Positions 4,045-53,938 of a DNA stretch of 64,000 nt are shown here, in pieces (positions within the stretch are counted from its first letter, which is position 1; each line of letters begins with the position of its first letter). Source of the DNA: a virus; the IMG/VR virus record IMGVR_UViG_3300035696_000038, positions 5,616 through 69,615 of that record. The stretch is one strand, 5' to 3'. The position numbers were made by a program, and so were the translations under genes. The notes below the pieces were generated by a model, which ran no database searches, was not told the DNA's origin, and was given only the letters and a program-made list of their open reading frames with translations.

Positions 4045-4268
4045 CACGACGAGAGGTTTGAGTGCGCCCATCGGGCGCAACTTGGGTTGCTAGGCTTTTG
4101 CTTTGAAAAGATGTTGTCGTGACGAGTTTCGAGTGCATCGCGGAGATGCAACTGTGTGGTATCGCACGTACGCAACTATAAGTGGAAGTCGCAACGGGAT
4201 TCGAGTGCGCCCATCGGGCGCAACACTGAGGCTGAGGCTTTCGAGTTGACCGAAAGCAGCCGCAACGG
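4045..4268 (+). CRISPR. Satellite CRISPR mini-array A (3 divergent 37-bp repeats plus a 5'-half repeat, 3 spacers)
   Basis: Repeats at 4045-4081, 4116-4152 and 4188-4224 end in GAGTGCGCCCATCGGGCGCAAC or GAGTGCATCGCGGAGATGCAAC. Spacers are 34-35 bp. Remnant GCCGCAACGG at 4259. Confidence 0.85.
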
Positions 4269-4323
4269 CTCCCAAACACGCTGTTGGCGGCGTAGCCGTA
4301 GGTGGTTAAGGTAGGGAATCGCG

Positions 4324-5010
4324 ATGGTGATCAAGTCCCCATTCAAGGACTACTACGACTTTGTCGCCCACCAATATGGCGGGGGCGACCCCGCGATTGT
4401 CTACGTCAGAAACCGCCTGGCGCCGATGGAGCAGGACCGCCTTGGCGGCTTGCGGCAAACTTCGCGGGAAGTGACGGTTCCTGGGGATTGCCCGCTACCG
4501 GCGTCGATCTGGTGGCGACCGACAGAAGGCACTAGCGAGATGTTTTTGTCAGCTGTGGGCAGGGGCTATTTGCTGCGCAAAAAGAGCGACTTGAACGACG
4601 ACGATCCGAACACTTACGCCGTGATTGCGCCGGCGGAGATCGATCGCGAAGAGCAGAAACGTGGCTACTACGGGAAAAGGTACCGGAGATTCGAGTTTGG
4701 CAAGGAATCGGCTTTCCTGGTTGAACTGTCGCGGACCATCGGGGCACCCGTTTTTGCCATCCAAAGCATTTTGTATCTTCACCGACCGGATACCTGCGTC
4801 TTGCGCATTCCGGGCCCGTGCCCGGTGCTGCGGGAGATCGGAATGCCAGCGCTGATTTCACCCCGGCAGATGTACCAGGACTTGGCCTACTTTTTGGGCA
4901 ATACCATGAAGCCGCACCCGGACACCGAACCGCCCGTCGAAGTGAGCAACCGGCAAAAAATTGTGAAGGCGGGATTCGACTTGAAACAGTCTTTCCGCCA
5001 CCGGCTATAA
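4324..5010 (+). CDS. Hypothetical phage protein
   Basis: 228 aa ORF (IKSPFKDYYD...KIVKAGFDLKQSFR). Confidence 0.7.
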   Translation: MVIKSPFKDYYDFVAHQYGGGDPAIVYVRNRLAPMEQDRLGGLRQTSREVTVPGDCPLPASIWWRPTEGTSEMFLSAVGRGYLLRKKSDLNDDDPNTYAVIAPAEIDREEQKRGYYGKRYRRFEFGKESAFLVELSRTIGAPVFAIQSILYLHRPDTCVLRIPGPCPVLREIGMPALISPRQMYQDLAYFLGNTMKPHPDTEPPVEVSNRQKIVKAGFDLKQSFRHRL

Positions 5011-5029
5011 TTGCGCGCATGGAGGAACT

Positions 5030-5236
5030 ATGGCCCTGGGACCGGGAAAGTACGATACGCAATGCACGCAGGTTCGCGAAGAAACCCAGGCAACCGGCGT
5101 TTGCTTGCTGGTTTTTGACGGGTGTAAGGGCAGCGGCTTCTCTGTGCAGACCGAAAACCTGTGCTCGCTGGCCATGCTGCCCCAGATTCTGCGCGATGCC
5201 GCCGACCAGATTGAAAGCTCGGGCGGGACGGCTTGA
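5030..5236 (+). CDS. Hypothetical protein
   Basis: TATAAT at 5006 and GGAGG RBS upstream. Confidence 0.65.
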   Translation: MALGPGKYDTQCTQVREETQATGVCLLVFDGCKGSGFSVQTENLCSLAMLPQILRDAADQIESSGGTA

Positions 5237-5277
5237 CGAAGCCCGCAACAGTGTTATACTGCGCGCGGAGATGAGCG

Positions 5278-5967
5278 ATGCGCGATGAACTGACACAAAT
5301 TGCATTGATCCTGGACAGGTCGGGCTCAATGGGCTCGATTGCAGGCGCGACCGTGGAAGGCGTAAACGCCTTTGTGGCCGAACAGCAAAAGGCTCCTGGC
5401 GAGGCGCTGCTTTACTTCGTACAGTTCGATGACGTGTATGAGCGCGTCTACGATGGCAGCATACAGAACGCGCCCCTGCTGACGCTTGCCAAGACCCTGA
5501 ACGTGCGCGAGCACCGCTTCCAGCCGCGCGGATGGACGGCGCTGCTGGACGCCATTGGCACAACCCTCGACGACGTAGGCAAACGCTTGGGCGAGATGCC
5601 GGAAGCCGAACGGCCGGGCAAGGTAGTAGTGGTGATCATGACCGACGGCATGGAGAACAAAAGCAAGAAATTTACCCGTGACCGGATTGCCGAGATGATT
5701 GCCCTGCAGCGCGACGTGTACAAGTGGCAATTCCAATTCCTGGGCGCCAATCAGGACGCGATTCAGGAAGCGGCGAAGTACAACATTCCTGCGGCCAATG
5801 CCGTGAGCTTTGCCAGCACGGCCACCGGCACAGGGAACGTGATACGGGCTATGTCGATCAATTTAACCAACTATCGCGTGAGCGGCCAAGCGCGGGCGAT
5901 GAGCTATAGCCCCGAAGATCGCGCCAAAGCCATGGCCGAGGACCGGCCAGCGCCCGGAAAGCATTAA
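5278..5967 (+). CDS. von Willebrand factor A domain protein
   Basis: MIDAS motifs ILDRSGSM, TALLDAIG and IMTDGMEN; TTGACG-N16-TATACT promoter upstream. Confidence 0.88.
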   Translation: MRDELTQIALILDRSGSMGSIAGATVEGVNAFVAEQQKAPGEALLYFVQFDDVYERVYDGSIQNAPLLTLAKTLNVREHRFQPRGWTALLDAIGTTLDDVGKRLGEMPEAERPGKVVVVIMTDGMENKSKKFTRDRIAEMIALQRDVYKWQFQFLGANQDAIQEAAKYNIPAANAVSFASTATGTGNVIRAMSINLTNYRVSGQARAMSYSPEDRAKAMAEDRPAPGKH

Positions 5968-6058
5968 CGAACCGCCGCACGCCAACTTTTTGAATGGGCC
6001 CTAAGCATAATGCCGCTCGATCTTTTCGGCTCGGGCGGCATGGGTTTTTGGAGGAGCA

Positions 6059-6391
6059 ATGGACCTTTGCGATTTTTGCAGCTCCCCGGCGGTGATAAAA
6101 CGTTTTGAGTGCCGGGACTTTGATAGCGCATCGAAGGACGCGGGCGTGATTTACCCGGAAACCGCGGCCGCTACCGGGCCGACCAACCTGGTATTTGCCA
6201 GCAAGGGCTATTGGGCCGCCTGCGCGCCTTGCGCGGCGCTGGTGGAAGCCGGCGACGTTGAAGGCTTGGTAAAACGCGTGCTCGATGAGTTTGAGCCGCT
6301 GCGGCATCGAGCGGAACTTGAAAGCCACCTGCGCAGAACCTACAAACTGTTCCTCGAAAACCAGATCGTCAAAGAAGAATCTGGCCTTTAA
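6059..6391 (+). CDS. Hypothetical protein with two CxxC pairs
   Basis: GGAGGAG RBS; CDFC...CAPC. Confidence 0.65.
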   Translation: MDLCDFCSSPAVIKRFECRDFDSASKDAGVIYPETAAATGPTNLVFASKGYWAACAPCAALVEAGDVEGLVKRVLDEFEPLRHRAELESHLRRTYKLFLENQIVKEESGL

Positions 6392-6469
6392 CGGCAAGCG
6401 ACCTTTGGCTGCCGCCAGGGGCCCAAAACCGGCGGCTTGAACTTGCTGCCGGACACAGGAAGGCAGGCG

Positions 6470-6865
6470 ATGAAACAACTGCTTCTGGTGGCGCTTTTTG
6501 TTGCTTTGGCGCCGTTGATGCGCGCCCAAAACAAAGGGACCGCCCCGGTGACGATGAGCGGGGCCAAGACCTTCTCTGTTTGGCTTACCTGGATCGCGCC
6601 GGCAAGTTCGCCAGACCCGGTTGCGGGCTACGCCGTCTTCCGGTCCTTGGACGGCACCCAGACTTACCAGCGGCTGAACACGCAGCCGACGACGGCGACG
6701 GCCTACACCGATTGGACACCCCAAACCAGTACGGCGTACGACTACTATGTGGTAAGCGTTGATGCCCAAGGGATAACGAGCGTACCATCGAACGTTGTGG
6801 CAGTGACGATTCCAACGCCGCCCGCAAGCGCCACAAACCTGACGGTGGCTGGAAAGGGAGCTTGA
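6470..6865 (+). CDS. Secreted fibronectin type III-like protein
   Basis: Signal peptide; LTW..P, VAGYAVFRS, YTD, YDYYVVSVD...S.PSN. Confidence 0.8.
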   Translation: MKQLLLVALFVALAPLMRAQNKGTAPVTMSGAKTFSVWLTWIAPASSPDPVAGYAVFRSLDGTQTYQRLNTQPTTATAYTDWTPQTSTAYDYYVVSVDAQGITSVPSNVVAVTIPTPPASATNLTVAGKGA

Positions 6866-7288
6866 ATGAAACCCCTGTTTGTACTACTGACCCTTGTACT
6901 GGCGTCTGTGCTTCCCGGACTGGCGCAGACCAAAGGAACCACAACCGTAACCCTTAGCGGAGCCTCACCGCAGACCGTGGTGGTAAGCTGGGCGGCACCG
7001 GTTGCTTCTGGCAGTTGGGCAGGCTGCACGACCGCCGCGCCCTGCACCTACGTGGTTTCAGTGCTTGCCGGTGCCTGCCCCTCTACCGTGGTTGGCTCCA
7101 GCGGCTGGCTGCAGTTTACGCCGGTGAGCGCGCTGACCCTGACAGACACAACGGAGACGCCCGGCGCAACTGTGTCTTATGTTGTTACGACGGTCCAGAA
7201 CGGTTTTAACGCCGCGCCATCGAATTGCGCGTCTTACACCGTCCCTTTGGACCCAAGCCCTGCCACCGGGCTGACAGTGGGTGGCTAG
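6866..7288 (+). CDS. Secreted FN3-like protein (paralog-like neighbour)
   Basis: Signal peptide; VVSWAAP...SYVVTTV...PSN. Confidence 0.7.
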   Translation: MKPLFVLLTLVLASVLPGLAQTKGTTTVTLSGASPQTVVVSWAAPVASGSWAGCTTAAPCTYVVSVLAGACPSTVVGSSGWLQFTPVSALTLTDTTETPGATVSYVVTTVQNGFNAAPSNCASYTVPLDPSPATGLTVGG

Positions 7289-7327
7289 CCAAGTTGTGGT
7301 GCTGGCTGAAACGGGTGTTTTGAGAAA

Positions 7328-7399
7328 CAGTTTTCAGTTCTTAGTTCGTAGTTCACAGTTGCAAAGGTCGGGGACTAAGAACTGTGAACTACGAACTAG
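7328..7399. repeat. Inverted heptamer tandem repeats (CAGTTNN / NNAACTG)
   Basis: CAGTTTT CAGTTCT TAGTTCG TAGTTCA CAGTT, followed by the mirror ACTAAGA ACTGTGA ACTACGA ACTA. Confidence 0.75.
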
Positions 7400-7416
7400 C
7401 CTTTATAATTGCGCCC

Positions 7417-7926
7417 ATGCCGATCTTGATTGCATACGACGCTTGGTTCGAAGGGCGCATCGAGGCGCTGTTGCGATGGCTGGATAACTGGCTCTCGATC
7501 AGCCAAAAATGGGCCGAACGCGGCATGATCGCGATTTACGTTGTCTTGTATCTTTGCGACGAGACAGAAGCTCTGGCATTGATCGCGTTGCGGCTCTCGA
7601 TAGCCTTCTTTTTGGCAATGATCATGTGGCATTTGCACCGGAGCCCGGCGGCAATGCGCGGACGGCGCAAACGCGTTCCGTTTTATCCTCTTATCCGAGT
7701 CGGCTTTCAATTGCTTATGTGCGGAAGCGGAGCTTTAGCGTCCCAAACGGCGAAAAGCCAGCGAGAAACCATCTCGCTGATGGCGATGCAGATTGTCTAC
7801 ATCGTCTTCTTCTATGCAACAGACATTGCCTTCGATGGCGAAAGCGGCCGTAAACGGAAGCTTGCGTGGGAGAAGATTCATAGTTCTCAGCTCCCGGGCT
7901 TTGCAACTGAGAACTATGAACTGTGA
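7417..7926 (+). CDS. Membrane protein, probably leaderless
   Basis: TATAAT-TGCGCCC-ATG at 7404-7419; four hydrophobic segments. Confidence 0.6.
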   Translation: MPILIAYDAWFEGRIEALLRWLDNWLSISQKWAERGMIAIYVVLYLCDETEALALIALRLSIAFFLAMIMWHLHRSPAAMRGRRKRVPFYPLIRVGFQLLMCGSGALASQTAKSQRETISLMAMQIVYIVFFYATDIAFDGESGRKRKLAWEKIHSSQLPGFATENYEL

Positions 7927-7991
7927 ACTGAAAACTGTTCCAAGGAACTATTTGGCGCAACGTGGATTCCGAAACCGATCGAAGTGCCGCA

Positions 7992-8348: not shown

Positions 8349-8371
8349 CCCGCGGCGTTATAATTGCGCGC

Positions 8372-9332: not shown

Positions 9333-9342
9333 ATTTCGCTTG

Positions 9343-17314: not shown

Positions 17315-17556
17315 ACTACGCAATGGCGCGCAAACTTGGCACGGGAGAAGCCGTGGACGTGCGGCATCTGGGTGAAGAGATCGAGCCCGGGATCTTCAGG
17401 CTGCATCATTTTATTGAAGACGTGGACTATTGCAACGCCCAGCGCGAGGTGTGGACCTGGAGCATTGGAAGACGCAAAACCGATGACGCGATTCTGGCCG
17501 CAACCGATGTGCGCTTCTATGAAAACCCGGAATTCGAGTGCCTGTGGCTGAGGTAG
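17311..17556 (+). CDS. Hypothetical protein
   Basis: ATGA overlap with the upstream gene; GGAG RBS. Confidence 0.65.
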   Translation: MNYAMARKLGTGEAVDVRHLGEEIEPGIFRLHHFIEDVDYCNAQREVWTWSIGRRKTDDAILAATDVRFYENPEFECLWLR

Positions 17557-17568
17557 TTCCGCTGGCCA

Positions 17569-18026
17569 ATGGGAAAGATCAAAATGCCGTGGAATATGGA
17601 CGAAGACAAGCTGCTCTGCCTGATGGCGCTGAACGACGGCGTGGCCCTGAAACTGAGTTCGCAGGCCGGAAAGCATATTGGCGGGGATTTATTTTGGAGA
17701 ACCGCACCACCCGCGCCGTGCACGCCCTGTTCCGGTTCAAATATAAGAACGGCAACCGGAATTGGTTCAGTATGCAACCCAAGCAGAAGGGCGACCGGGA
17801 AACGACGATGCACGCGCTGCGCTGCAGCCTGGAAGACAATATCAAGCTGGCCATGAAAGTTTTTGGCATTCCACCCGAAGTTGCTGCCCAGGCGATTGAA
17901 TGCTTTTATCCGCCTGACGACGAGGGAGATCCTGGAAAGACCGTTATTTGGCTGGAGCAGCGCAACTTGATTGAAATCCATGTACAACCCGAGGAAGCAG
18001 AAGATGATCGAAAAAGTAACCTATGA
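17569..18026 (+). pseudogene. Frameshifted paralog of 52864-53367 immediately upstream of the Cas12 gene
   Basis: The N-part KLLCLMALND..SSQAGK and the C-part AYWRGFILEN...PPDDEGD..WLEQRNLI lie in different frames, switching at GGAAAGCA (~17668-17675). Both align to the intact paralog. Confidence 0.7.
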
Positions 18027-20295
18027 CGGCGCGACCGTGCGCGTCCACCTGGCTTCGATTTCATTGAAGGCAACCAAGGCGTTTACCCACGGCAGCTTCA
18101 TCTTCGACAAAGAGACGCAGCGGCTGACCATGGGCCAACTGGCTCCGGTGCCCATACCAGCCGAGTTGGAGCTGAGCGAAGGCGCACAGCTCAACTTTCA
18201 ACTGGTGGCGCCCGACGGCGCCCTGCGCAAACAAACCCGCTGTGGCGTGCTCAAAGCAAATGAGAAACAACCATCGATCTTGCGTATCGCCGGCATGGCC
18301 AAGACGGCGCGACGCTACCCCGCCGAAGAAGGCTGGCGCAACGAAATCTATAAATACCGCGCCTGCTTTGCCCACGAGGGTCTGAAGACCGACGCCGTGC
18401 TGGGTGAGCCTCTCAACTTGCCCGAATGGCTCAAGGGTTGCGTTGCGCGGCAAAAAGCGCTGTGGAACCGCCTGGCCTGGCTTTGCCGCGATGCGCGGCG
18501 TAAATGCTCCCCGGCGCCGACCGAGGCGATTGCGGAGCTTGTTAAAGGCACGATTTTGCCCATGATCGATGCCTTCAATTTCAACCTTGGCCGCGCCAGA
18601 GCCAAGGAGAAGATGCGCCACCCGGCCAAGCTGAAAGTGGAGATGCCGGGGCTGGACGGAGTTTGGAGCTTTATTGGAGAACTGCGCCATAGAATCGAAA
18701 AGGGCCAAGCCGTGCCGGAAAAACTGCTTGAAGAGGTGGTGGCCTTTGCCGAACAATACAAGGCCGAGTACACGCCAATCAACGAGTTTCTGAACAACTT
18801 TGCCGCCATTGCCGAGAGAGAAGCTAGGGCGCTGGGGCTGCGGCACTTTGAGGTGCGTCCCACCGTGAGCGCCTTCAAAGCCGTGCTGGACCGGCGCAAG
18901 ACCACCAACGCGCCATGGTCGGAGGGTTGGCCCTTGATCAAGTATCCAGACCGGCCAAAAGCCGCCGATTGGGGTGTTTACTTCTACTTCAACAAGGCGG
19001 GCGTGGACGCGAGCCTGCTGGAGACGGGACCCGGCGTGCCCGGCTTGCGCTTTTCGCCGCCGGTACCGCCCGAAAAGACCGGACACAAAGGCATGACGGG
19101 CGCGGCGGCCAAACGCGCGCTGCGCGAAGCGGAAATTTCAATTACCGGAGACGACGGTGAGAAAGGCGAACGATGGTCGCTGCGCTTTGGCGTCCTTCAG
19201 CATCGTCCGCTGCCGCCAAACTCGCACATCAAGGAATGGAAACTCCTGTTTCAGAACGATGCCCTGTGGCTTTGCCTGGTGGTTGAGCTGCAACGGCCCC
19301 CAGCCACACGTACCCCGCAAACGGCTGGCTTGGATATTGGCTGGCGGCGCACGGAAGACGGCATCCGCTTTGGCACCCTGTATGAATCCGCCACCAAGAC
19401 CGTGCGGGAATTGACGCTCGACCTGACACGATCACCCGGAGACCACAAGAACCGCGTGCCCTTCCGGATCGACTTGGGGCCCGATAGCTGGACGCGTACG
19501 GTTTTTGCTCAACTGGAACGCGGCGAGACCGAGAACCCGCGCCGCGGCCCCTGGGACAGCACCGTGCTTTGGCGTGCCTATAAGGACTGGAAGCCGAAGG
19601 ACGGAATCCCCGGCATTTTGGAGATTCGCACCACGCTACAGGCCCGTAACGACTACCTGAAGGAGACCGCCAAGATTTTGCTGCGCAAGCACCTGGGGGA
19701 CAAGACTCCGGCCTGGCTCGAAAAAGCTGGCCGCAGGGGTTTGTTCAAGATGCAGACAGAGTTTTTGGAAGACGCGCGGGTGCAGGAGATTTTGACCCCA
19801 TGGCGCGAAGAAGACGGCAGGATTGCCCGCTTTCTAGCGGTGTTTGCCGCCAACGCAGCCCGGCGCATTGAATACGGCCAAGCGCAAGTGGCGCACGACA
19901 TCTGCCGGTACCTTGTACAGAAAAACGTGAAGGTGCTGGTGGTTGAAAAGAACTTTCTAAGCAAGCTGGCGCAGCACCACGACAACGAAGACCCAGTGAG
20001 CTTGAAGCGCAGCCAGAAGTACCGCCAGTTTGCGGCGGCGGGAAGATTTGTGACCATCGTGAAGAACACGACTGTAAAGTATGGGATCGTGGTTGACGAG
20101 ATCGATGCAGCCAACACCACACGTATGTGCCACTATTGCGATTTTTTGAACCCGTCGACGGAGAAGGAATGCTACAACTGCGGGGGTTGCGGCCGACAAG
20201 TGAAACAGGATGAAAACTCGGGGATCAATCTGGTGCGGTTTGCGGCAGACCCGGAACTGGCAAAGAAAGCGCAGGAGGGGGGACGCGAAGCCTAG
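18004..20295 (+). CDS. cas12: Type V CRISPR effector (TnpB/Cas12 family, Cas12m/V-U1-like), ~763 aa
   Basis: WED/REC start IYKYRA...KALWNRL; RuvC-I TAGLDIGWRRTEDGIRFG; RuvC-II VLVVEK; Zn finger TTRMCHYC...CGGC; RuvC-III QDENSGINL; abuts cas4. Alternative starts at 17971 and 17980. Confidence 0.85.
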   Translation: MIEKVTYDGATVRVHLASISLKATKAFTHGSFIFDKETQRLTMGQLAPVPIPAELELSEGAQLNFQLVAPDGALRKQTRCGVLKANEKQPSILRIAGMAKTARRYPAEEGWRNEIYKYRACFAHEGLKTDAVLGEPLNLPEWLKGCVARQKALWNRLAWLCRDARRKCSPAPTEAIAELVKGTILPMIDAFNFNLGRARAKEKMRHPAKLKVEMPGLDGVWSFIGELRHRIEKGQAVPEKLLEEVVAFAEQYKAEYTPINEFLNNFAAIAEREARALGLRHFEVRPTVSAFKAVLDRRKTTNAPWSEGWPLIKYPDRPKAADWGVYFYFNKAGVDASLLETGPGVPGLRFSPPVPPEKTGHKGMTGAAAKRALREAEISITGDDGEKGERWSLRFGVLQHRPLPPNSHIKEWKLLFQNDALWLCLVVELQRPPATRTPQTAGLDIGWRRTEDGIRFGTLYESATKTVRELTLDLTRSPGDHKNRVPFRIDLGPDSWTRTVFAQLERGETENPRRGPWDSTVLWRAYKDWKPKDGIPGILEIRTTLQARNDYLKETAKILLRKHLGDKTPAWLEKAGRRGLFKMQTEFLEDARVQEILTPWREEDGRIARFLAVFAANAARRIEYGQAQVAHDICRYLVQKNVKVLVVEKNFLSKLAQHHDNEDPVSLKRSQKYRQFAAAGRFVTIVKNTTVKYGIVVDEIDAANTTRMCHYCDFLNPSTEKECYNCGGCGRQVKQDENSGINLVRFAADPELAKKAQEGGREA

Positions 20296-20931
20296 ATGGA
20301 AGAAGATGATTTTGTCTCAATTTCCGCCTTGCAGCACTACAGCTATTGCCCTCGCCAATGCGGTCTGATCCATGCCGAACAGAGCTTTGCGGAGAATGTC
20401 TACACGGCGAGGGGTAATGCGGTTCATCGTAAAGCCGATTTTAGTGGCTATGAGCTGCGAGTTGGACTCCGCATGGAGCGCGCTCTGCCGTTGGCAAGCC
20501 AAAAATTGGGGCTGATTGGAAGAGCCGATATCGTTGAATTCTCTTCAGACAGATCGGCTTATCCGGTGGAATACAAGCACGGACTGCGCCGACAGCAAAA
20601 CCATGACGACATCCAATTGGCCGCTCAAGCTCTATGCCTGGAGGAAATGACAGGTCTCTCCGTACCGTTTGGTGCAATCTATCACGCGAGCAGCCGCCGT
20701 CGGCGCGAGGTGGAAATCACAGACGCACTTCGCGTGGAAGTTGTCGAAACAACACAAGCAATTCGCGTCATGATCCAGACGGGATGGTTGCCGCCGCCCG
20801 CCAATGACGCGCGTTGTCCCCAATGTTCCCTGATCGGTCTTTGCCAGCCACAGGCGCTCGCGGAGCGTTCGAGACGGAGAACTATGCAAACGAATCTCTT
20901 TATTGTGGAGGATGAATGCGGCCCTTATTGA
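20296..20931 (+). CDS. cas4: CRISPR-associated exonuclease Cas4 (I-C-like)
   Basis: ISALQHYSYCPRQ, GRADIVE, PVEYKHG, QLAAQALCLEEM, CPQCSLIGLC. Confidence 0.96.
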   Translation: MEEDDFVSISALQHYSYCPRQCGLIHAEQSFAENVYTARGNAVHRKADFSGYELRVGLRMERALPLASQKLGLIGRADIVEFSSDRSAYPVEYKHGLRRQQNHDDIQLAAQALCLEEMTGLSVPFGAIYHASSRRRREVEITDALRVEVVETTQAIRVMIQTGWLPPPANDARCPQCSLIGLCQPQALAERSRRRTMQTNLFIVEDECGPY

Positions 20932-21956
20932 ACACGCTCTACATTACACTGCGCGGCTACCTGCACCTCGAAAACGACACACTTCGTTTTGAAGTAGAAC
21001 ACGAAACCAAGTTGCGTGTGCCCTTGCATCACCTTGGATGCGTGGTGTGCTTTGGCGATGTAATGGTTTCGCCGGCAGCTATGGCTCGATTGGCGAAAGA
21101 AGGCAAATCGCTTGTCTTTCTCGATATGAATGGCCGTTTTAAGGCGAGGGTTGAAGGGCCGATCAACGGAAATATCCTGCTGCGCAAGGCGCAGTTCGCC
21201 CGTGCGGATTCGCCAGAGTTTGCCTTGGCGCACGCCAAGGCGTGCATTGCTGGGAAGTTGAGAAACAGCCGTTCCGTTTTGCTGCGCAGCGCCCGCAATG
21301 CAGATGAAAGAGAAGATACCGACAACTTGCGAAAGGCCGCAGCTAGCTTGGTTGTAAACTTGCGCTCCTTGGAGAGCGCACTCACGCTCGATGCTGTGCG
21401 TGGATTGGAAGGTGAATCGGCGAGACGCTATTTTTCTGCGTTTGGTTGCATGATCCGCAAAGACCTGCGCGCGCAATTCGCACCCGACGGACGGAGCCGT
21501 CGACCGCCGCGCGACCGAATGAACGCGCTTCTTTCGTTTCTTTACAGCATGTTGGCTAACGATTGCCGCAGCGCGCTTGAAACCGTCGGGCTCGATCCGC
21601 AACTTGGCTATCTGCACGCCGTGCGGCCCGGACGCGCGTCGCTCGCTCTTGACTTGATGGAGGAGTTTCGGGCAATTTTCGCAGATCGCTTGGCAGTGAC
21701 GCTTGTCAATCGCAAACAGATTCAATACGACGATTTTGAAGAACGGCCAGGAGGAGGAATTGAGTTGCGGGAGGCCGCTCGAAAAACGCTTATTTTCGCC
21801 TTCCAAGAACGCAAGAAGGAGATCGCTTACCACCCATTGTTGGACCAAAAACTAGCTCTTGGCTTGCTTCCACAAATTCAGTCCAGATTTCTCACTCGCG
21901 TAATTCGTGGCGAAGCCGAGCACTACCTGCCCTTTTTGGAGGACCGACCGTGCTGA
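20916..21956 (+). CDS. cas1: CRISPR-associated integrase Cas1 (type I-C-like)
   Basis: [64 protein letters not shown]. Confidence 0.97.
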
Positions 21957-22240
21957 TCTTGGTTTGTTACGACGTGGCAACGGATACGCACGACGGCAGA
22001 AACCGGCTGCGCAGAGTGGCTAAAGCCTGCGAGGCGGTTGGACAACGAGTGCAGCGGTCAGTGTTCGAATGCCGAGTGAATCAGATGGAGCGTGAAGAGT
22101 TGGAACGGAATCTTCTGGAAATCATTGATCCGTTGGAGGATTGCCTACGGTTCTACCGCATCACCGAACCCTCTGGTCAGCACGTCAAAGAATACGGTAC
22201 ATTTACAGCCGTGGATTTTGACGGGGTACTCGTAATTTGA
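21950..22240 (+). CDS. cas2: CRISPR-associated endoribonuclease Cas2
   Basis: MLILVCYDV...[21 protein letters not shown]...DCLRFY. Confidence 0.97.
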
Positions 22241-22425
22241 GGCGTGCTGCGCTAACCCCAAGTGAACATGAAAATGCCGGGGGGTTAGTAGGCACGGTAA
22301 CAGCTTGATTTTATGGAGTATAGGCCGTAGTATGAGTTCATTGCGCCTGTTCGAGCCTGTGGAAAAGTCGAGGTTAGCGCAAAATGCCCCTGGCGCGTTG
22401 ACACGAAAGAGCTTTTGGCGGTGGC
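22241..22425 (+). promoter_or_regulatory. CRISPR leader
   Basis: Non-coding gap between cas2 and the first repeat with inverted GCGCTAACC...GGTTAGCGC boxes, as typically seen in I-C-type leaders. Confidence 0.75.
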
Positions 22426-23461
22426 GGCGCAACGCAGTTCCAGTGCACCCCATGGGTGCAACTTATTGGAGGATTCAAGAATCGCCTGGGCGATGGGGCG
22501 CAACGCAGTTCCAGTGCACCCCATGGGTGCAACCGCCGGCCGCCGCATACAGGCTTCTTTACCGCAAGGCGCAACGCAGTTCCAGTGCACCCCATGGGTG
22601 CAACGTCCTGGTCGTACATCTTCCCGCACTTCTCACACGGCGCAACGCAGTTCCAGTGCACCCCATGGGTGCAACTTCTTTTGGTTCCAGCATCATCCTT
22701 CCCGAGCATCGGCGCAACGCAGTTCCAGTGCACCCCATGGGTGCAACGCTGCGCTGGCGGCGTTGTTCACTGGTGTTGACCGGCGCAACGCAGTTCCAGT
22801 GCACCCCATGGGTGCAACTTTGCAACGCTCGCGACTGCGACCGCGCAGACTCGGCGCAACGCAGTTCCAGTGCACCCCATGGGTGCAACTTTGGCATGCT
22901 GTGGACGCATAGCACTTTAGGGCCGAGGCGCAACGCAGTTCCAGTGCACCCCATGGGTGCAACTTTGTGGAATGCCTCGCTGATCTCGAGCGGAAGATGG
23001 CGCAACGCAGTTTCAGTGCACCCCATGGGTGCAACTGGCGTCCGTTTAGCCACTCTTGAAACTCGGAGGCGCAACGCAGTTTCAGTGCACCCCATGGGTG
23101 CAACCTCTTGCTCGACCGCAACAAGCGCGCCGGCACAAGGCGCAACGCAGTTTCAGTGCACCCCATGGGTGCAACTTATGCTGCGCGCACAGCCACTCGA
23201 TGACGCGCTGGCGCAACGCAGTTTCAGTGCACCCCATGGGTGCAACCGTTAGAAGGTGAATATCGAAAATGGACAAAAACGGCGCAACGCAGTTTGAGTG
23301 CATCCTCTGGATGCAACTTTCGACAGCTTGTTTGCTCTCGCCTTCCCGCCGCGGCGCAACGGGATTTGAGTGCATCCTCTGGATGCAACTGTTGTTCAGA
23401 CCGATCTGATGATGATTGTTTCTGGTCGCAACGCAGTTTGAGTGCACCCCCGGTGGGATCT
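22426..23461 (+). CRISPR. Main CRISPR array: 15 repeats of 37 bp and 14 spacers of 32-37 bp
   Basis: Consensus GGCGCAACGCAGTTCCAGTGCACCCCATGGGTGCAAC. R9-12 carry TTTCAG; R13-14 have stem TGCATCC-TCT-GGATGCA; R15 is degenerate. Confidence 0.98.
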
Positions 23462-45181: not shown

Positions 45182-45218
45182 CTGGAGACGCGGTTTGAGT
45201 GCGCCCGCCGGGCGCAAC
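45182..45218 (+). CRISPR. Solitary CRISPR repeat B
   Basis: CTGGAGACGCGGTTTGAGTGCGCCCGCCGGGCGCAAC has the same 3' hairpin and AAC end as the arrays. Confidence 0.65.
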
Positions 45219-45959: not shown

Positions 45960-46280
45960 GTTGCATCCGGGGGATGCACTCAAACTTTATTGCGGCTATA
46001 CTTTCGCGGTATCAGACCATCCGAAAACAGTTGCACCCAATGGGTGCACTTGAACTTCATTGCGGTAAGACGAGATCGTCGGGCCTGTTCAGCGCCTCGG
46101 GGTTGCACTCGGCAGGTGCACTTGAACCTCATTGCGGCAGAGACGACTGCGCTTTGCGACATTCCAGAGCACGTTGCACCCATCAGGTGCACTGAAACTT
46201 CATTGCGACTAACGCAGACCAAAGGGGCTGTTTTGTCCGACTCGTTGCACCCATCAGGTGCACTGAAACATGCTTAGCCG
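45960..46280 (-). CRISPR. Satellite CRISPR array C (5 repeats, 4 internal spacers)
   Basis: Reverse-complement repeats at 45960, 46030, 46102, 46173 and 46244, e.g. GTCGCAATGAAGTTTCAGTGCACCTGATGGGTGCAAC; spacers 33-35 bp. Confidence 0.92.
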
Positions 46281-48303: not shown

Positions 48304-48546
48304 GTTGCATCCGGTGGATGCACTGGAACTGCGTTGCGGGGGTCAATGAGGCGTTTTATTCCGGAGGTATCAAAAGTTGCATCCAGAGGATGCACTGGAA
48401 CCTTATCCCGCCAACATGTCGAGAGAAATCCAAAGTTGCACCCGATGGGTGCATTAAAACATTACCGCGAGGGACACCGCCATTGACAAGACGCCATGGC
48501 ATCTCGAAAGTTGCACCCGGTGGGTGCACTCGAACCCGCTCGCCGT
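48304..48546 (-). CRISPR. Satellite CRISPR array D (4 divergent repeats)
   Basis: Reverse-complement repeats at 48304, 48376, 48435 and 48510, e.g. CCCGCAACGCAGTTCCAGTGCATCCACCGGATGCAAC; spacers of 35, 22 and 38 bp. Confidence 0.88.
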
Positions 48547-49996: not shown

Positions 49997-50199
49997 GCGA
50001 GAAGGTGACACTGGTGATGGATATTCGCGGTCTGCGGCGGGAAGCCGGAGTCACCATCGAACAAGCGGCGGCGATGACCGAAGTTCCCAAGGCAACACTG
50101 ATGCGCATCGAGACCGGAGCCGCGCCAGCGCTGGAGAACGCGCTGAGGATTGCGCGCTTTATGCGGACACCGGTGGAAGAGATTTGGAGGCTTGAATGA
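49993..50199 (+). CDS. XRE-family HTH regulator
   Basis: LRREAGVTIEQAAAMTEVPKATLMRIETG..P.LENALRIA. Confidence 0.85.
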   Translation: MSEKVTLVMDIRGLRREAGVTIEQAAAMTEVPKATLMRIETGAAPALENALRIARFMRTPVEEIWRLE

Positions 50200-50597
50200 C
50201 TAACGAGCTTAAATGCGACCTATGCGGCGACGGTGGAACGATTTATTTGCATGCGCGGTGCCACGGCGTGGAGCCGCCCTGGGTCTGCTTGACCGGCGAT
50301 GTGCTGACCCTGGAATGCTCGGTTTGCAAGCGGCTGGTGAGCCGGTTCAGGCTGGCGCAAGAAGGAACGGACCCAGCCGCCGCGCGGCTGGAACAAGCCC
50401 TGCAAATTGCCCGGCACGCCTTGAGCGAACAGCACGACGCCATCGATCAATTGTTTGCCCGGCTGACAGTGGCGGACGAAAACTTTTCTCCATCGCGCAC
50501 CGGACAGCCCTGGCGGGCGCTGCTGGAGGGCAACGAAGCCATGAAGGCGATTGAGGCCACCATGCTACGAGCGGACAACCAGGGAGAACCGCAATGA
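50196..50597 (+). CDS. Hypothetical protein
   Basis: ATGA coupling; Cys/His cluster. Confidence 0.65.
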   Translation: MTNELKCDLCGDGGTIYLHARCHGVEPPWVCLTGDVLTLECSVCKRLVSRFRLAQEGTDPAAARLEQALQIARHALSEQHDAIDQLFARLTVADENFSPSRTGQPWRALLEGNEAMKAIEATMLRADNQGEPQ

Positions 50598-50977
50598 GGG
50601 TCATCATTGCCGGCAGCCGCAATATTGGCGATATGTGGGCGCTGGAGGCGGCCATTCGCCAGGCAGACTTTGAAATTACCGAGGTGGTTTCAGGCCGGGC
50701 CGCGGGCGTGGACACGTTGGGCGAGATATGGGCCGACCTGAACGGAATACCGAAAAAGCTGTTTGCGCCCGACAGGAAGAAACACGGCTGGCCTAAAGCC
50801 GCCTTTGTGCGAAACGCGCAGATGGCCGACTATGCCGATGCCTTGATTGCCGTGTGGGACGGCGAAAGCCACGGCACGAAACACATGATCGAGTGTGCCA
50901 GGAAGAAAGGCTTGAAGGTGCACGTGTTTTTGCTTGACCCAATCAGGTACCGCCCCTGTGACCGAGGCAACTCGTGA
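50594..50977 (+). CDS. SLOG-family (YspA/DUF2493-like) nucleotide-binding protein
   Basis: VIIAGSR, VVSGRAAGVDTLGE.WA, RNAQMADYADALIAVWDGESHGTKHMI. Confidence 0.88.
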   Translation: MRVIIAGSRNIGDMWALEAAIRQADFEITEVVSGRAAGVDTLGEIWADLNGIPKKLFAPDRKKHGWPKAAFVRNAQMADYADALIAVWDGESHGTKHMIECARKKGLKVHVFLLDPIRYRPCDRGNS

Positions 50978-51348
50978 CCAAAAAACATGAACTCATGGAA
51001 GAACTTGACTTTATGCTCTTGGGCTTGGTAAGCGCGGAAAGGATGCAATTATCGAGACAACAGGCGATTATCCGGCGCATTGTCGGGCGTTTAGTGGAGC
51101 AACTGGCCGAACTTGAGACAAACAAAAATGAAGATCGCTGCGATATCTGACACCCATGGGCTGGCCTTTGACCGGCCCCCCGGCAGACAGAATGCTTCCG
51201 CCGCTGGTGTTTGAGATTACCTAACTGGCTCAATGCGCGCAGATTAAACTAGACTTGCGCCTTGGGCTCGGTTATCTTGCTCAAGAATGCCTGCCGGGCA
51301 GTTGAGGGACGGCAGGAGCTAGAACCCCACGAGGAGGGGGAAACGGAA

Positions 51349-51756
51349 ATGAAGGCCGCAAATAAAAAAGCGAAGCTGAAGTGCCCGGAGTGCCACCGCG
51401 GCGACTTTGAAAACCTGCGCAATTTGGGCGTGCATCGGAAGTTCCAGCATGGGGTGCCGGGACAATCTGCCGCGTCGGTTTACAAGCGGAAGCACGAGCA
51501 GAACGAAAAGCTGGCCGAGGACCCGAACCATGACCAGGACCGGGCCCGCGAGCCCCAGGAGCCGCAGGGGGCCGTCGAAGCTCTGCCGTCGATAGCGGCG
51601 GCGCAAGCCGCGGCCACTATTACTCCAGTGCTGGTGGGCTACGCCGTGGCCAAGTTGGAACACCTGGCCGAGACCATTGCGCGCGCCCAAGCAGTGCCTG
51701 AAAGGGAATTTGTAAAACTGGTGGCCCGGCAGCTGGTGGCCTTGAGAGACCGGTAG
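51349..51756 (+). CDS. C2H2 Zn-finger-containing hypothetical protein
   Basis: CPECH...F..L..LGVHRKFQH; TAGACT-N17-TATCTT promoter at ~51250. Confidence 0.65.
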   Translation: MKAANKKAKLKCPECHRGDFENLRNLGVHRKFQHGVPGQSAASVYKRKHEQNEKLAEDPNHDQDRAREPQEPQGAVEALPSIAAAQAAATITPVLVGYAVAKLEHLAETIARAQAVPEREFVKLVARQLVALRDR

Positions 51757-51876
51757 AACAATGGCAGACGAGCTGGCTGCGAGGCGGCGCGTGACAATGT
51801 CGCAGTGGGTGATCTATGACCACCCACGCGACCACCCCCAAAAGGAACATAGCCAACCAGAGAAAGACGCGAACGA

Positions 51877-52302
51877 ATGACGGCGGAATGGAAAGAGACC
51901 CTGCTAACTCTTGCTGACATCTTCGCCAGCCTGTTGCTGGTCGCTTACGGGATGATGATCGGTCATCAATCCCGCCACAGCATGTGGTTTGGGGCTTTGT
52001 TGTGCTCAGCGATTGCGAGCTTTCTTATCGCCTCGACCGCAGTGCGAAACCACGCTGCGCGTAAGTTGATTGAGGTGTCGAAACAACTGATCCTGATGCA
52101 GAAGAGACTGATCGGCGATGCCGACATCCTGAACCTGCGGGAGCGGAACGCCAAGCTTACTGACGTTGCATTGTCCGCAGTGGCGCTGATGGTGACCATT
52201 GAACATGGAATGACGCCCGACCTGCACGCCCTGAAACGGGATTTGGCGGCTGCGGGCCAACTGCGCGCTGAAGACAAGCCGAACAGCGCCGCAAAACCTT
52301 GA
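51877..52302 (+). CDS. Membrane protein
   Basis: Two N-terminal TM segments. Confidence 0.55.
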   Translation: MTAEWKETLLTLADIFASLLLVAYGMMIGHQSRHSMWFGALLCSAIASFLIASTAVRNHAARKLIEVSKQLILMQKRLIGDADILNLRERNAKLTDVALSAVALMVTIEHGMTPDLHALKRDLAAAGQLRAEDKPNSAAKP

Positions 52303-52336
52303 CCGCCGATCGCTGCGATAGGAGAAAGAGCCCGCC

Positions 52337-52867
52337 ATGCCCTATGACCTGACACCCGTGAACCGCGAAGCCGGTGCCTTTCGCTTTGGCGCCTTCAGCT
52401 TTGTTGTATTGCTCGAAGCCTGCGGGTACCTGTTTACCTGTGTTCATGGGCCAGCGCAATGGTTTTGTGTGTGGGAAGCCGATGAACGGATGAACGGAGC
52501 GCACCCCGACGGCTCAAAAGACCCTTACCCTGCGATCTTGGGCGGCGGTTTTGACGTGAGCGACGAAGAAGCGCGCATCATGGCGCGCATGGCGCGAAAC
52601 TTTGCGGCGGTGCAGCGCAAGCTGCCAGAAGAAAACCGTGCGCAGGATCTGCGCTCAAAACCGAGATTCGACCGTGCCGACGTTCTGCACCTGCTGACCA
52701 AGGCAATGGCGGGTGGCCAGGCGGGTCCCTGGCCGACGAAGGTACGCGACGACTTTACCGCCAGGATCGAGCGGTTTGCCGAATGGGCGCCGCGCTCGGG
52801 CGGCTTCCACGTCAACTTCAGTTTGACCGTGCGCTTTACAAACGCCCAAGAAAAGGATGAAGCATGA
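52337..52867 (+). CDS. Hypothetical protein
   Basis: AGGAG RBS; 176 aa. Confidence 0.7.
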   Translation: MPYDLTPVNREAGAFRFGAFSFVVLLEACGYLFTCVHGPAQWFCVWEADERMNGAHPDGSKDPYPAILGGGFDVSDEEARIMARMARNFAAVQRKLPEENRAQDLRSKPRFDRADVLHLLTKAMAGGQAGPWPTKVRDDFTARIERFAEWAPRSGGFHVNFSLTVRFTNAQEKDEA

Positions 52868-53367
52868 CCGACAAAATAACCGCCCCGCTGGCCGACCCAG
52901 ACTTGGACTGCGTGGGCTTTAACCTGGACACGCAAAAACTGCTGTGTCTGATGGTCTTGGACGACGAGCTGGCCGCGCTGCTCAGCGACCAGGCCGGAGA
53001 GGCTTTTTGGCGCGCGTTTATTGTGGAAGATCGTGTTACTGGCGAGATCCACGCGCGGCAACGCTTCCGCTACGTTGACCACGATTCGTGGTCGCACCTG
53101 AACCTGAACGCCGAGCGGCAAAAGAAAAGCCGTGAGGAGCGCGTGGACTATCTGCGGGGAGGGCTTGAGTTTGTGCTGCGCGGGGCTTTTGCCATGCTGA
53201 CCAAGGGTGCACCGGCACCTAAGGATATGGTGGTCAACTTCTTTCCGCCAGACGACCAGGGCGACGGCAACAATACACTCAAGTGGCTGATCGAGAAGGA
53301 CCTGATTTACGTGCGCGGGGTGGAGAAAGCAGAAGGCGAACCGGCAGAGGGAGATGTTTTGATGTGA
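52864..53367 (+). CDS. Hypothetical protein; intact paralog of the gene upstream of cas12
   Basis: KLLCLMVLDD, FWRAFIVED, FFPPDDQGD..LKWLIEKDLI; the stop lies within the first repeat of array E. Confidence 0.8.
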   Translation: MTDKITAPLADPDLDCVGFNLDTQKLLCLMVLDDELAALLSDQAGEAFWRAFIVEDRVTGEIHARQRFRYVDHDSWSHLNLNAERQKKSREERVDYLRGGLEFVLRGAFAMLTKGAPAPKDMVVNFFPPDDQGDGNNTLKWLIEKDLIYVRGVEKAEGEPAEGDVLM

Positions 53368-53938
53368 CGCGAGTGCATCCCACGGATGCAACTGTCCAGG
53401 CGGTATGCTTGGGGGACGCCAACTGGGCGCGGCGTGATTCGAGTGCACCCCTTGGGTGCAACATACTGATGGGAACCGCGCTTGACTTCTTTGGTCGGGT
53501 CGTCACGTGGTTTGAGTGCATCCCACGGATGCAACTACGTCGAACGTCCCGATCAGCATCGCGCTGAATGGGCGCAACGCAGTTCAAGTGCACCCCTTGG
53601 GTGCAACAATCGGCCCTGTTTGATCGCCGCGTGGAGAGTGCGCGGCGCAATGCAGTTTCAGTGCACCCCATGGGTGCAACACTCATCGGTCCTATCTCCT
53701 CGGTTTTGTTGATCGGCGCAACGCAGTTCAAGTGCACTTTCTCGGTGCAACCTTAAACTCGTAGGTCAACGTCTCTGTATTGCCGTGGCGCAACGCAGTT
53801 TCAGTGCACCCCACGGGTGCAACGTATTCGCTGTTTTCAAGAATGCGGTGAGTGATCTCCCGCAACGCAGTTCGAGTGCATCCCCAGGATGCAACCGCGT
53901 AGGCCAAAAAGATCGTTGGCGCGCTTTGCCGTAACGCG
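53356..53938 (+). CRISPR. Satellite CRISPR array E (8 repeats plus a 5'-half remnant)
   Basis: Repeats end at 53392, 53462, 53535, 53607, 53680, 53751, 53823 and 53895; spacers 33-36 bp; remnant GCCGTAACGCG at ~53928. Confidence 0.95.

Follow-up and report, generated by a model that had tools for sequence, protein, structure and literature searches.

Why should a viral genome keep several small CRISPR arrays whose repeats mostly differ from one another, when Cas1-Cas2 is expected to copy repeats exactly? The question is raised by a stretch of 64,000 nucleotides (the window) from the 69.6-kb virus record IMGVR_UViG_3300035696_000038. A preliminary description of this DNA had proposed that the repeats lying between position 4045, where array A begins, and position 53895, where array E ends, share a hairpin that compensatory changes have preserved as a crRNA handle. 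It had further proposed that the satellite arrays are old, no longer expanding, and under selection for effector recognition only. The span and the hairpin are real: with up to two mismatches allowed, the hairpin motif occurs 33 times in the window, against a mean of 0.41 in shuffled sequences, none of 100 of which reached 33.

The record, which carries cas12, cas4, cas1, cas2, and a main array of 14 repeats, probably represents a virus or provirus of peat Acidobacteriaceae and has its own type V system (Cas12m-like effector, Cas4, Cas1, and Cas2). The predicted effector (17971..20295, + strand; 774 amino acids) has a C-terminal RuvC-like domain with a zinc-ribbon (TNB) insert, as type V effectors do. 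Matches to Pfam Cas12f1-like_TNB and to the NCBIfam TnpB family cover its C-terminus only (PF07282, E = 6.7e-09). Its RuvC residues D455, E659, and D747 form a canonical D-E-D set and, together with four cysteines, are kept in 25-34 of 35 homologs. The best sequence matches in the PDB are to Cas12m (profile E = 3.3e-21, RuvC region), and the top Foldseek matches, which extend over the whole length, are Cas12m2 (8hhl_A, E = 5.7e-19) and GoCas12m (8pm4_A, E = 3.2e-16); every top fold match is a Cas12 or TnpB. A 162-amino-acid open reading frame (ORF; 17538..18026, + strand) overlaps the start of cas12; it matched no Pfam family, and its homologs lie upstream of cas12 in two related loci (L011 and L048).

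Downstream of the effector gene, all on the + strand, are cas4 (20296..20931; PF01930, E = 6.5e-23; TIGR00372, E = 5.1e-37), a type I-C-like cas1 (20916..21956; PF01867, E = 2.1e-95; TIGR03640 cas1_DVULG, 466 bits against a cut-off of 385), and cas2 (21950..22240; PF09827, E = 2.2e-23). The stretch between cas2 and the first repeat (22241..22425, + strand) is the putative leader, assigned from its position. The main array (22426..23389, + strand) consists of 14 repeats of 37 nt in four distinct forms: repeats 1-8 are identical, as are 9-12, and 13 and 14 have diverged. A degenerate 15th repeat (23425..23461, + strand), recognized from its sequence and a partial covariance-model match (18.2 bits), retains the 5' arm of the hairpin and has lost the 3' arm and the terminal AAC. 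The main array is the only one of the window with a putative leader and adjoining cas1-cas2, as in an expanding array.

A structure scan and a covariance model agree on 35 intact 37-nt repeats in the window, 25 of them distinct; no repeats were found in the remaining 5.6 kb of the record. Beyond the 14 of the main array, 21 belong to five satellites. Array A (4045..4224, + strand; three repeats, two spacers) sits between + strand ORFs at 3798-4028 and 4324-5010. B1 is a solitary repeat (45182..45218, + strand; TGCGCCC GCC GGGCGCA; 45.1 bits in the covariance model), 55 nt upstream of which heptamer repeats occur. Arrays C (45960..46280; five repeats) and D (48304..48546; four repeats) lie on the - strand; a promoter-like site (48577-48548) is found directly upstream of array D, and a resolvase gene adjoins it. 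Array E (53356..53895, + strand) has eight repeats, in the first of which a 167-amino-acid ORF stops (52864..53367, + strand); this ORF is a paralog of the one overlapping cas12 (33% identity over 115 amino acids, E = 3e-18). As the preliminary description had noted, the repeats within a satellite are unlike each other: all are distinct in A (3/3), C (5/5), D (4/4), and E (8/8). Upstream of all five satellites no sequence resembling the main leader was found, and no adaptation genes lie alongside.

The arrays are otherwise ordinary, with repeats of constant length, a period of 70-73 nt, and unique spacers of 32-38 nt apart from one of just 22 nt in array D. Among 190 spacers from the window and its relatives, none is common to different arrays or records, and the only duplicates are two neighboring pairs, each within a single array of a relative. 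The target search returned no target for any spacer, and matches to the 69.6-kb record reach 12-13 nt at most, of which we estimate about two to be expected by chance.

In the window, a 7-bp stem adjoins the spacer, and across the 25 distinct repeats 98.3% of the 175 cells (repeat by pair) are paired. Twelve cells, at two pairs, have changed on both sides and still pair, and neither pair shows a half-change; these cells are not independent events, the arms being 3-5 nt apart and inherited together. Not one of 500 shuffles attained either the paired share or the 12 double changes, and structures slid by 1-3 columns were only 18-53% paired. The variants reported earlier are all present, namely TGCGCCC/GGGCGCA in three distinct repeats, TGCATCC/GGATGCA in eight (nine for that pair, since A2 also has U-A there), and the wobble form TGCACCT/GGGTGCA in two. 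Unpaired cells number three: C3 has C·A, E6 has U·C, and A2 has G·A, the last being the usual state in relatives, and the six pairs found family-wide show a single mismatch in 150 cells. RNAalifold returned the same helix, which is also the minimum-energy fold of 23 of the 25 distinct repeats.

Constraint on the repeat is uneven. When the 21 satellite repeats are compared with the main repeat, differences amount to 37% of bases 1-12 (93/252) and 63% of the loop (40/63), against none in the outer three base pairs (0/126), one in the AG before the stem (1/42), and none in the AC after it (0/42); of 29 changes in the inner stem, 20 are paired doubles. In 24 of 25 distinct repeats the stem has G18 on one side and A36 on the other, and AAC, which the structure scan did not demand, follows the stem in all 35 intact repeats, so that its loss is confined to the degenerate terminal repeat, as had been claimed. 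The loop is indeed free, although the loops first listed were incomplete (CGG, ATT, CCC, and ACC also occur), and free drift of the first dozen or so bases holds only in part, because G4, A7, T13, and T14 vary in merely 4-12% of distinct repeats. The evidence supports a hairpin held by compensatory change, in a pattern compatible with a crRNA handle, grading from fixed outer pairs and flanks, through inner pairs that need only pair, to a free loop.

Peat viruses and Acidobacteriaceae metagenome-assembled genomes (MAGs) yielded about 40 related arrays that share this hairpin, aligned as 203 distinct repeats from 41 non-redundant arrays. Because the family scans demanded at least five of six pairs, a G preceding the stem, and AC following it, the family's paired share and its G..A flank are partly built in; so read, the alignment covaries at three pairs, with pair 4 being A-U in 177 repeats, G·U in 18, G-C in five, and C-G in three, pair 5 being U-A in 144, C-G in 58, and C·A in one, and pair 6 being C-G in 149, U-A in 39, U·G in 12, and C·A in three. 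Eight fully paired stem types occur, and, counting from the haplotype list, we find that linking them takes six double changes or more. Aligning 113 distinct repeats of relatives with a model, which is itself fitted to the structure, gives an agreeing picture. Since U-A is the commonest state at pair 5 in the relatives, the nine U-A repeats of the window may be retained ancestry rather than nine separate events. Between orthologous units of three related arrays, the stem and flanks differ at 2/304 positions and the spacers at 9/650, compared with 13/304 in the 5' parts and 7/95 in the loop region.

Presence of cas1 goes with uniform repeats. Of 82 sources (the window plus 81 loci), the search recovered cas1 from just four, namely the window, L001 (= L049), L078, and L091, all of which also carry cas4. 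All three cas1-adjacent arrays compared are homogeneous (one distinct repeat among 11 in L001, one among 22 in L078, and four among 14 in the main array), whereas all 28 arrays in cas1-less loci are heterogeneous (distinct fraction 0.54-1.0, median 1.0; Mann-Whitney p = 0.0016). The exception is an array in L011 with ten consecutive identical repeats and no cas1 in its 28.6-kb fragment. This family-wide tie of cas1 loss to repeat diversity suggests how virus-borne arrays may persist without adaptation. That the satellites no longer expand gains from it, and from the missing leader-like sequence. Uniformly old satellites are hard to square with E4, E5, and E7, whose first 18 bases depart from the main repeat at just one or two positions. 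The "old and static" reading is thus only partly supported, and that the satellites are no longer changing is doubtful, because in relatives without cas1, three arrays homologous to one another have gained or lost entire units in their interior.

Taken as a whole, the data are probably best explained by selection on an RNA handle, with the main array being copied and the satellites uncopied and diverging. Each array would be transcribed in the repeat-to-spacer direction, yielding a guide RNA in which the repeat's 3' portion precedes the spacer, with a handle that in DNA terms reads approximately TT..AG, a stem of 6-7 bp, a loop of 3-5 nt, and AAC. The effector is predicted to recognize base identity in the three outermost stem pairs (U-A, G-C, and C-G), in the G that precedes the stem, and in the AAC that follows, while requiring only pairing of the inner stem and ignoring the loop. 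Main repeats would be copied at each spacer acquisition, judging from their near-identity and the neighboring cas1-cas2. The satellites, having no leader-like sequence, would not be extended by the integrase, so mutation, probably together with recombination of units, would drive their repeats apart, and selection on guide function would purge changes that break the hairpin or alter fixed bases. With no target found for any spacer, the satellites are putative working guides.

Recombination might account for most of the heterogeneity, hairpin-plus-spacer cassettes being shuffled within and between arrays of co-infecting related viruses; the arrays would then be mosaics of units, each with the repeat variant of its source, and nothing would require the satellites to be old or static. 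This is a serious possibility, if a somewhat doubtful one, and it overlaps with the preferred explanation as to selection on the hairpin. Spacers of L039, L068, and L079 are 97-100% identical and in the same order, yet unique units are interspersed mid-array, a pattern equally well explained if the three lost different units of a larger ancestral array. The stem type travels with its spacer, and 5' parts and loops differ between orthologous units; unit 3 of L079 seems to combine two stem types (TGCATC with AATGCA); pairs 5 and 6 show every one of the four possible state combinations, and stem types are intermixed within arrays. In the window, A2 has exactly the relatives' G..A closing form TGCATCG...AGATGCA, and E4-E8 and D4 combine a 5' part near that of the main repeat with other loops and stems. 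Contigs of two peat sequencing runs join a C4-like repeat to 34-35 nt absent from the window, but on just one side does roughly a single repeat match, at 85% or more, and they may stem from arrays of other viruses. Shuffling between arrays also sits poorly with the uniqueness of the spacers, and the search for close relatives of the window turned up none sharing its repeat type. Further, and speculatively, most Cas12m-like systems of this peat-virus family might have given up adaptation and keep "germline" libraries of such cassettes, with spacers under purifying selection, cassettes reshuffled by recombination at the conserved hairpin and spread inside operons so that viral mRNAs release guides, and repeat diversity itself selected because it limits deletion between units. 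Divergence is 1.4% in spacers, 4-9% in neighboring cas12 DNA, and 4-7% in unconstrained repeat parts.

We consider it improbable that the satellites serve gene regulation or mRNA processing and not immunity, either with the effector cutting or masking polycistronic transcripts at hairpins, as co-directional placement between genes would allow, or with fixed partial-match guides silencing chosen promoters, in the manner of known regulatory mini-arrays. All five satellites are co-directional with at least one flanking gene, and arrays A, C, and E start within a few bases of the end of the upstream ORF; orientation is by itself weak evidence. The last repeat of array A and its next 15 nt are shared with a solitary repeat in the relative L009, where those 15 nt run straight into a start codon, and a solitary repeat in L010 ends 2 nt before cas12. 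Standalone repeats beside cas12a and regulatory mini-arrays are described in PMC10120712. The spacer matches within the record are at about chance level, however, and the period and unique spacers are those of ordinary arrays. CRISPR repeats also serve as Cas1-Cas2 substrates, which, with the resolvase gene beside array D, could point to a palindrome kept in DNA as an integrase or recombinase site or a cruciform. Yet such a palindrome should treat G·U and A·C alike, and on the repeat-then-spacer strand the family has 34 of the former and 7 of the latter (binomial p = 2.5e-5), a bias that favors selection on RNA read in that direction; moreover, conservation is strongest where no cas1 is nearby, and the fixed AG and AAC flanks are not palindromic, so we give this idea very little credence. 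It is just as hard to believe that the satellites are functionless remnants whose hairpin has merely lacked time to decay. The hairpin-less last repeat of the main array, the truncated spacer of array D, and the lack of spacer targets would fit, but the outer stem is untouched where 5' parts and loops have diverged, most inner-stem changes are paired doubles, and the pattern recurs in the relatives' arrays.

One copied, homogeneous array and five uncopied arrays in the same genome amount to a natural mutagenesis screen of the guide-RNA handle, which predicts the bases read, the positions that need only pair, and the free positions for an uncharacterized Cas12m-like effector of 730-780 amino acids. 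The main array, which looks active and adjoins cas1-cas2, provides an internal control in that screen. Natural non-repetitive guide arrays are also of practical interest for stable multiplexed arrays.

The nearest solved relative of the effector appears, by sequence profile and by fold, to be subtype V-M Cas12m (MmCas12m2 and GoCas12m), although the fold alignment has merely 13-15% identity (TM-scores 0.37-0.52) and the sequence match is limited to the RuvC region. The protein and its full-length homologs (711-783 amino acids) are larger than the compact Cas12m (about 600). The canonical D-E-D of its RuvC residues is a further difference, and Cas12m variants with D-E-D also failed to cut (PMC11013384). 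In the solved Cas12m2 guide, a G(-23)·A(-2) pair closes a 6-bp stem beside the spacer (PMC10442227); likewise, the hairpin in the window abuts the spacer and has a G..A flank. As in Cas12m, cas12 and cas4 leave no space for a tracrRNA between them, and the system rides on a mobile element. V-U1 systems are described in PMC11013384 as having no adaptation genes in the locus; most relatives of the window are like them, whereas the window itself has cas4, cas1, and cas2.

In a Cas12a-type guide, a short stem-loop derived from the repeat's 3' end sits immediately 5' of the spacer, and the guide can do without the rest of the repeat upstream. The window likewise has a repeat-derived hairpin, the putative handle, 5' of the spacer, with another effector family and another stem sequence. 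Divergent repeats that keep a structure are no new principle. Kunin et al. 2007 reportedly described compensatory changes in CRISPR repeat stems between systems. Stems of mini-array repeats, too, keep pairing rather than identity (PMC10120712). The solitary B1 and L010 repeats and the small arrays away from cas genes resemble the regulatory mini-arrays and standalone repeats of that paper, from which they differ in that the search of the record revealed no promoter partly matched by a spacer and satellites reach eight repeats. As in both precedents, pairing is kept while bases vary; here, the variation is seen from one repeat to the next within an array as well as among the six arrays of a single genome, and the same is found throughout a family of viruses.

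The viral record is a single record of 69,615 bp, and the window comprises its bases 5616-69615. On the plus strand, a gene for a Cas12-like protein of 774 amino acids (17971-20295) is followed by cas4 (20296-20931), cas1 (20916-21956), cas2 (21950-22240), a 185-nt leader, and the main array, whose 14 repeats of 37 nt occupy 22426-23389. A 15th repeat (23425-23461) is degenerate, its 5' arm being present and its 3' arm and terminal AAC gone; degenerate terminal repeats are a familiar feature of CRISPR arrays. Five satellite loci lie at distances of up to 31 kb: array A (three repeats, 4045-4224, plus strand), the solitary repeat B1 (45182-45218, plus strand), array C (five repeats, 46280-45960, minus strand), array D (four repeats, 48546-48304, minus strand), and array E (eight repeats, 53356-53895, plus strand). 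A covariance model built from the repeats recovered the same 35 intact copies and the degenerate one, and nothing further in the window; a search of the remaining 5.6 kb of the record found no repeats.

Other genes in the window encode a large serine recombinase (28980-30716, plus strand), a resolvase, an ERF recombinase, SSB, a primase-helicase, several DNA methyltransferases, and a PAPS-reductase-like protein; no capsid or tail gene was found among the approximately 50 window ORFs searched. A small resolvase/invertase gene (48613-49308, minus strand) lies immediately upstream of array D, in a block whose arrays, C and D, run opposite to all the others. The spacer between repeats D2 and D3 (48413-48434) is 22 nt long, compared to 32-38 nt for all other spacers, which suggests an internal deletion.

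The repeat consists of a 5' part, AG, a 7-bp stem enclosing a loop, and AAC; stem pairs are numbered from the outermost (1) to the loop end (7). The hairpin motif occurs 33 times in the window, against 0.41 expected. Among the 35 intact repeats, 25 are distinct, and in these the helix that pairs columns 19-25 with columns 29-35 comprises 175 cells, 98.3% of which hold standard pairs. The outer three pairs are invariant; at pair 4, 22 repeats have A-U and three have G-C, and at pair 5, 16 have C-G and nine U-A; there are no half-changed cells at pairs 4 and 5, and the four G·U cells and three unpaired cells all lie at pairs 6 and 7. The G..A of repeat A2 at the loop end looks like a mismatch; in relatives it is the usual arrangement. 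Twelve cells are doubly changed, and neither this number nor the observed pairing was matched in 500 shuffles, results that bear out the covarying hairpin of the preliminary description. Shifting the helix by 1-3 columns lowers pairing to 18-53%, RNAalifold returns the identical helix, and the same helix is the minimum-energy fold of 23 of the 25 distinct repeats.

With the main repeat as reference, the 21 satellite repeats differ at 93 of 252 positions in bases 1-12, at 40 of 63 loop bases, and at 29 of 168 inner stem bases (20 of these 29 in paired double changes); the AG differs at 1 of 42 positions, and the 126 outer stem bases and 42 bases of the terminal AC do not differ at all. The loop, originally described as free, is indeed so, with further loops beyond those first listed; the 5' part is free in general, but G4, A7, T13, and T14 vary in just 4-12% of the distinct repeats. 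Within each satellite every repeat is unlike its array neighbours, as had been claimed for most of them, and the main array has four variants among its 14 repeats.

Homologs of the effector number more than 100 (711-783 amino acids, 42-65% identity); all are from metagenomes or MAGs, and the named ones belong to Terracidiphilus or Acidobacteriaceae. The loci fetched comprise seven from IMG/VR (one a distant C-terminal match only), six from MAGs, and 72 from metagenomes (the last few distant or partial). Their arrays have a common repeat plan, comprising AG, a 6-bp stem (TGCAYY/RRTGCA), a loop of the form G-NNN-A, and AC, and the seventh C-G pair in the window's lineage is derived from the relatives' G..A. 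Several dispersed arrays also occur in relatives' whole records, for example at approximately 2.3, 10.3, 12.8-14.0, 36.1-36.7, and 40.0-41.4 kb in G003.

Across the family (41 non-redundant arrays, 203 distinct repeats), pair 4 is A-U in 177, G·U in 18, G-C in five, and C-G in three; pair 5 is U-A in 144, C-G in 58, and C·A in one; and pair 6 is C-G in 149, U-A in 39, U·G in 12, and C·A in three. To enter the scan, candidates had to have at least five of six pairs, with the stem preceded by G and followed by AC; the total paired share and the flank are therefore in part a product of these criteria, unlike the mix of pair types. The fully paired stems fall into eight types, at least six double changes being needed to link them (counted from the haplotype list), and the wobble intermediates (G·U at pair 4, U·G at pair 6) sit where transition paths would be expected to pass. 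A model-based alignment of relatives' repeats (113 distinct sequences), itself fitted to the model, gives the same picture.

No sequence like the main leader is present at any satellite. In the 82 sources searched (81 loci and the window), cas1 and cas4 are found downstream of cas12 only in the window and in the relatives L001 (the same virus as L049), L078, and L091, the contig of the last ending before any array. Among five whole records examined, cas1 is present in one, and one of the four cas1-less records is rated 99% complete. Arrays adjoining cas1 have 1 distinct repeat in 11, 1 in 22, and 4 in 14, whereas at cas1-less loci all 28 of the 28 non-redundant arrays of at least three repeats have a distinct fraction of 0.54-1.0, with a median of 1.0 (Mann-Whitney p = 0.0016, the loci not all being independent). 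This contrast supports the earlier suggestion that identity among repeats lasts only as long as the integrase goes on copying them. The relative L011 is an exception, its first 10 repeats being identical with no cas1 in the 28.6-kb fragment.

The view that the satellites are old and static fares less well. Over the first 18 bases, repeats E4, E5, and E7 have 1-2 differences from the main repeat, and E1, D2, and A1 have 10-12, so either the ages of the satellites are mixed or units have been exchanged. The nine window repeats with U-A at pair 5 may represent retained ancestry, because U-A is the commonest family state at that pair. Relatives' arrays also differ by whole units: three homologous cas1-less arrays on separate contigs (L039, L068, and L079) have their first, last, and some inner spacers in common, in the same order and at 97-100% identity, with blocks of unique units in between, a pattern that reflects either differential loss of units from a larger ancestor or gain or exchange of units. 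A degenerate pattern for the window's own repeat type matched no record in IMG/VR and none in the metagenome collection, so that no sister strain of the window was found in either.

Among the sequencing runs listed, the stretch is present in two peat DNA runs and in no RNA run, and contigs of the second contain pieces of it, including E5-E8, with zero differences. Contig joints at heptamer repeats, and one joint with main-array spacer 8, were set aside as repeat cross-mapping. At two joints in array C (46030-46138), contigs of the two runs join a C4-like repeat to 34-35 nt foreign to the window and then to C3 or C4; one side of each joint is only one repeat long, and the contigs come either from variant alleles of array C or from other viruses' arrays.

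Probably, the 3' 20-25 nt of the repeat would serve as the handle of the guide for a Cas12m-like effector, the integrase would have ceased to copy the satellites, and selection on guide function would maintain the handle in them. A palindrome kept at the DNA level is a very improbable alternative: G·U-type cells outnumber A·C-type cells by 34 to 7 (p = 2.5e-5; cells counted, not events), an excess that is predicted by selection on an RNA read repeat-then-spacer and not by a DNA palindrome. That the satellites are functionless decay is hardly credible to us. In 19 orthologous unit pairs from L039, L068, and L079, differences are found at 9 of 650 spacer positions (1.4%) and 2 of 304 positions of stem plus flanks, against 13 of 304 in the 5' parts and 7 of 95 in the loop region; the neighbouring cas12 DNA has 91-96% identity. 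The free repeat parts vary more than either spacers or stems (Fisher p about 7e-4 each), and this sequence pattern argues that the fixed guides of these arrays may be in use.

The 5' difference in these three arrays is partly due to hybrid repeats arising from unit loss. Cassette recombination as the chief source of repeat diversity, which overlaps with selection on a guide handle, is a possibility that we entertain tentatively. Under the handle reading the system may act in immunity, in inter-element competition, or in regulation; a regulatory or mRNA-processing role as the explanation of the satellites themselves we consider unlikely.

Tandem heptamers (CAGTTCN / NGAACTG), alike in orientation, precede B1 (at 45072-45126) and array D (at 48576-48609) by 30-55 nt, the latter copy overlapping a promoter-like site (48577-48548). 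They also occur at 7905-7938, 12513-12543, 12851-12884, 37725-37818, 39678-39776, 42480-42535, and 43559-43632. Summed contig depth at the B1 and D heptamer spots is far above the surroundings in the two peat runs (57 and 190 versus approximately 5-9 in one of them, X1), which indicates that heptamers are widespread in the community. Upstream of cas12, a small protein without a known family is encoded in the window (17538-18026), in L011 (902-1300), where the order is small protein, array, cas12, and in L048 (749-1180). Its paralog (33% identity, E = 3e-18) is found directly before array E (52864-53367); array E may be the remnant of a second cas12 locus, or the small protein may be array-associated.

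The last repeat of array A and the next 15 nt, with two GAGG motifs (4188-4239), are common to a solitary repeat of a relative whose Cas12 is 61% identical (L009, 17838-17889; also L016) and in which the 15 nt run directly into an ATG. Either the junction is old and conserved, or a repeat hairpin has been placed in a 5' UTR. A solitary repeat in L010 (9962-9998) ends 2 nt before the cas12 start (10001), recalling the standalone repeats upstream of cas12a described in PMC10120712, and weaker, hairpin-only model matches are found just before or near cas12 in L002 and L007.

No protospacers were found in the record, approximately 300 kb of relatives, phage and plasmid collections, or IMG/VR (three exact scans), and none that were convincing in 406 genomes of the Acidobacteriaceae family. 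Window spacers yielded only self matches and 11-17-nt matches in the whole record and fetched loci, and 190 spacers revealed no cross-targeting among the loci collected to that point. Apart from one unrelated 71-nt match outside the arrays, megablast with 4045-23461 and 45182-53930 found nothing in phages and plasmids; exact IMG/VR scans that used the opening 23-24 nt of three spacers had zero matches each, and the main array matched none of five MAGs encoding relatives. Weak partial matches to the main array (19-28 nt, E = 4e-4 to 1e-2 per genome) occur in 19 of 401 genomes of the family, and one such match (L025) lies within G278; the eight best were rejected as targets, being sited in unrelated chromosomal genes, and treated as chance. 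Self-regulation via 12-13-nt spacer matches in the record was likewise rejected, their number being close to a rough estimate of chance expectation.

Spacer M11 of the main array (23176-23209) has 82-93% matches in seven genomes of the family; the two inspected lie in unrelated amidohydrolase-type genes with a common IEWL motif, and the matches are probably due to chance or to a conserved peptide motif. At spacer starts in the main array and arrays A and D, T is far above expectation: 11 of 29 window spacers start with TT (binomial p = 7e-7) and seven with TTT, including all three of array D, and relatives' spacers have only a mild excess of T starts (55 of 160). The T-rich starts may be what is left of a T-rich PAM taken up with the spacer.

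In the effector itself, Pfam and NCBIfam recognize only the C-terminal TnpB/Cas12 zinc-ribbon region. Its best solved sequence matches are Cas12m proteins (E = 4.6e-08 for the single sequence, and 3.3e-21 over the RuvC part for a 35-sequence profile). The best whole-length matches of its AlphaFold model (mean pLDDT 83.3) are Cas12m2 (E = 5.7e-19) and GoCas12m (E = 3.2e-16), with TM-scores of 0.38-0.50 and 15% identity, and Cas12f, TnpB, Cas12g, and Cas-lambda rank lower. The RuvC residues are D455, E659, and D747, position 455 being D in 25 and E in nine of 35 homologs.

Compensatory change in CRISPR repeat stems was reportedly described by Kunin in 2007. With copied and uncopied arrays side by side in a single genome, the present case provides an internal control; it further contributes a family-wide association of cas1 loss with repeat diversity and a larger Cas12m-like effector clade in Acidobacteriaceae viruses. 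Mini-array stems retain pairing, not identity, according to PMC10120712. In the paper listings and passages covered, no description of this within-array repeat divergence was found for Cas12m-like viral arrays, which is weak evidence of absence; the supplementary tables of PMC11013384 and PMC10120712 may list Cas12m repeats relevant to this. On its sequence and predicted fold the effector appears to be Cas12m-like, and we make no assignment to V-M; it is approximately 170 amino acids longer than Cas12m, its sequence is very distant, and an adaptation module accompanies it here. The Cas12m proteins published so far, D-E-D variants included, bind DNA without cutting it (PMC11013384), and the repeat plan of the window resembles the Cas12m2 guide, in which a G·A pair closes a 6-bp stem beside the spacer (PMC10442227).
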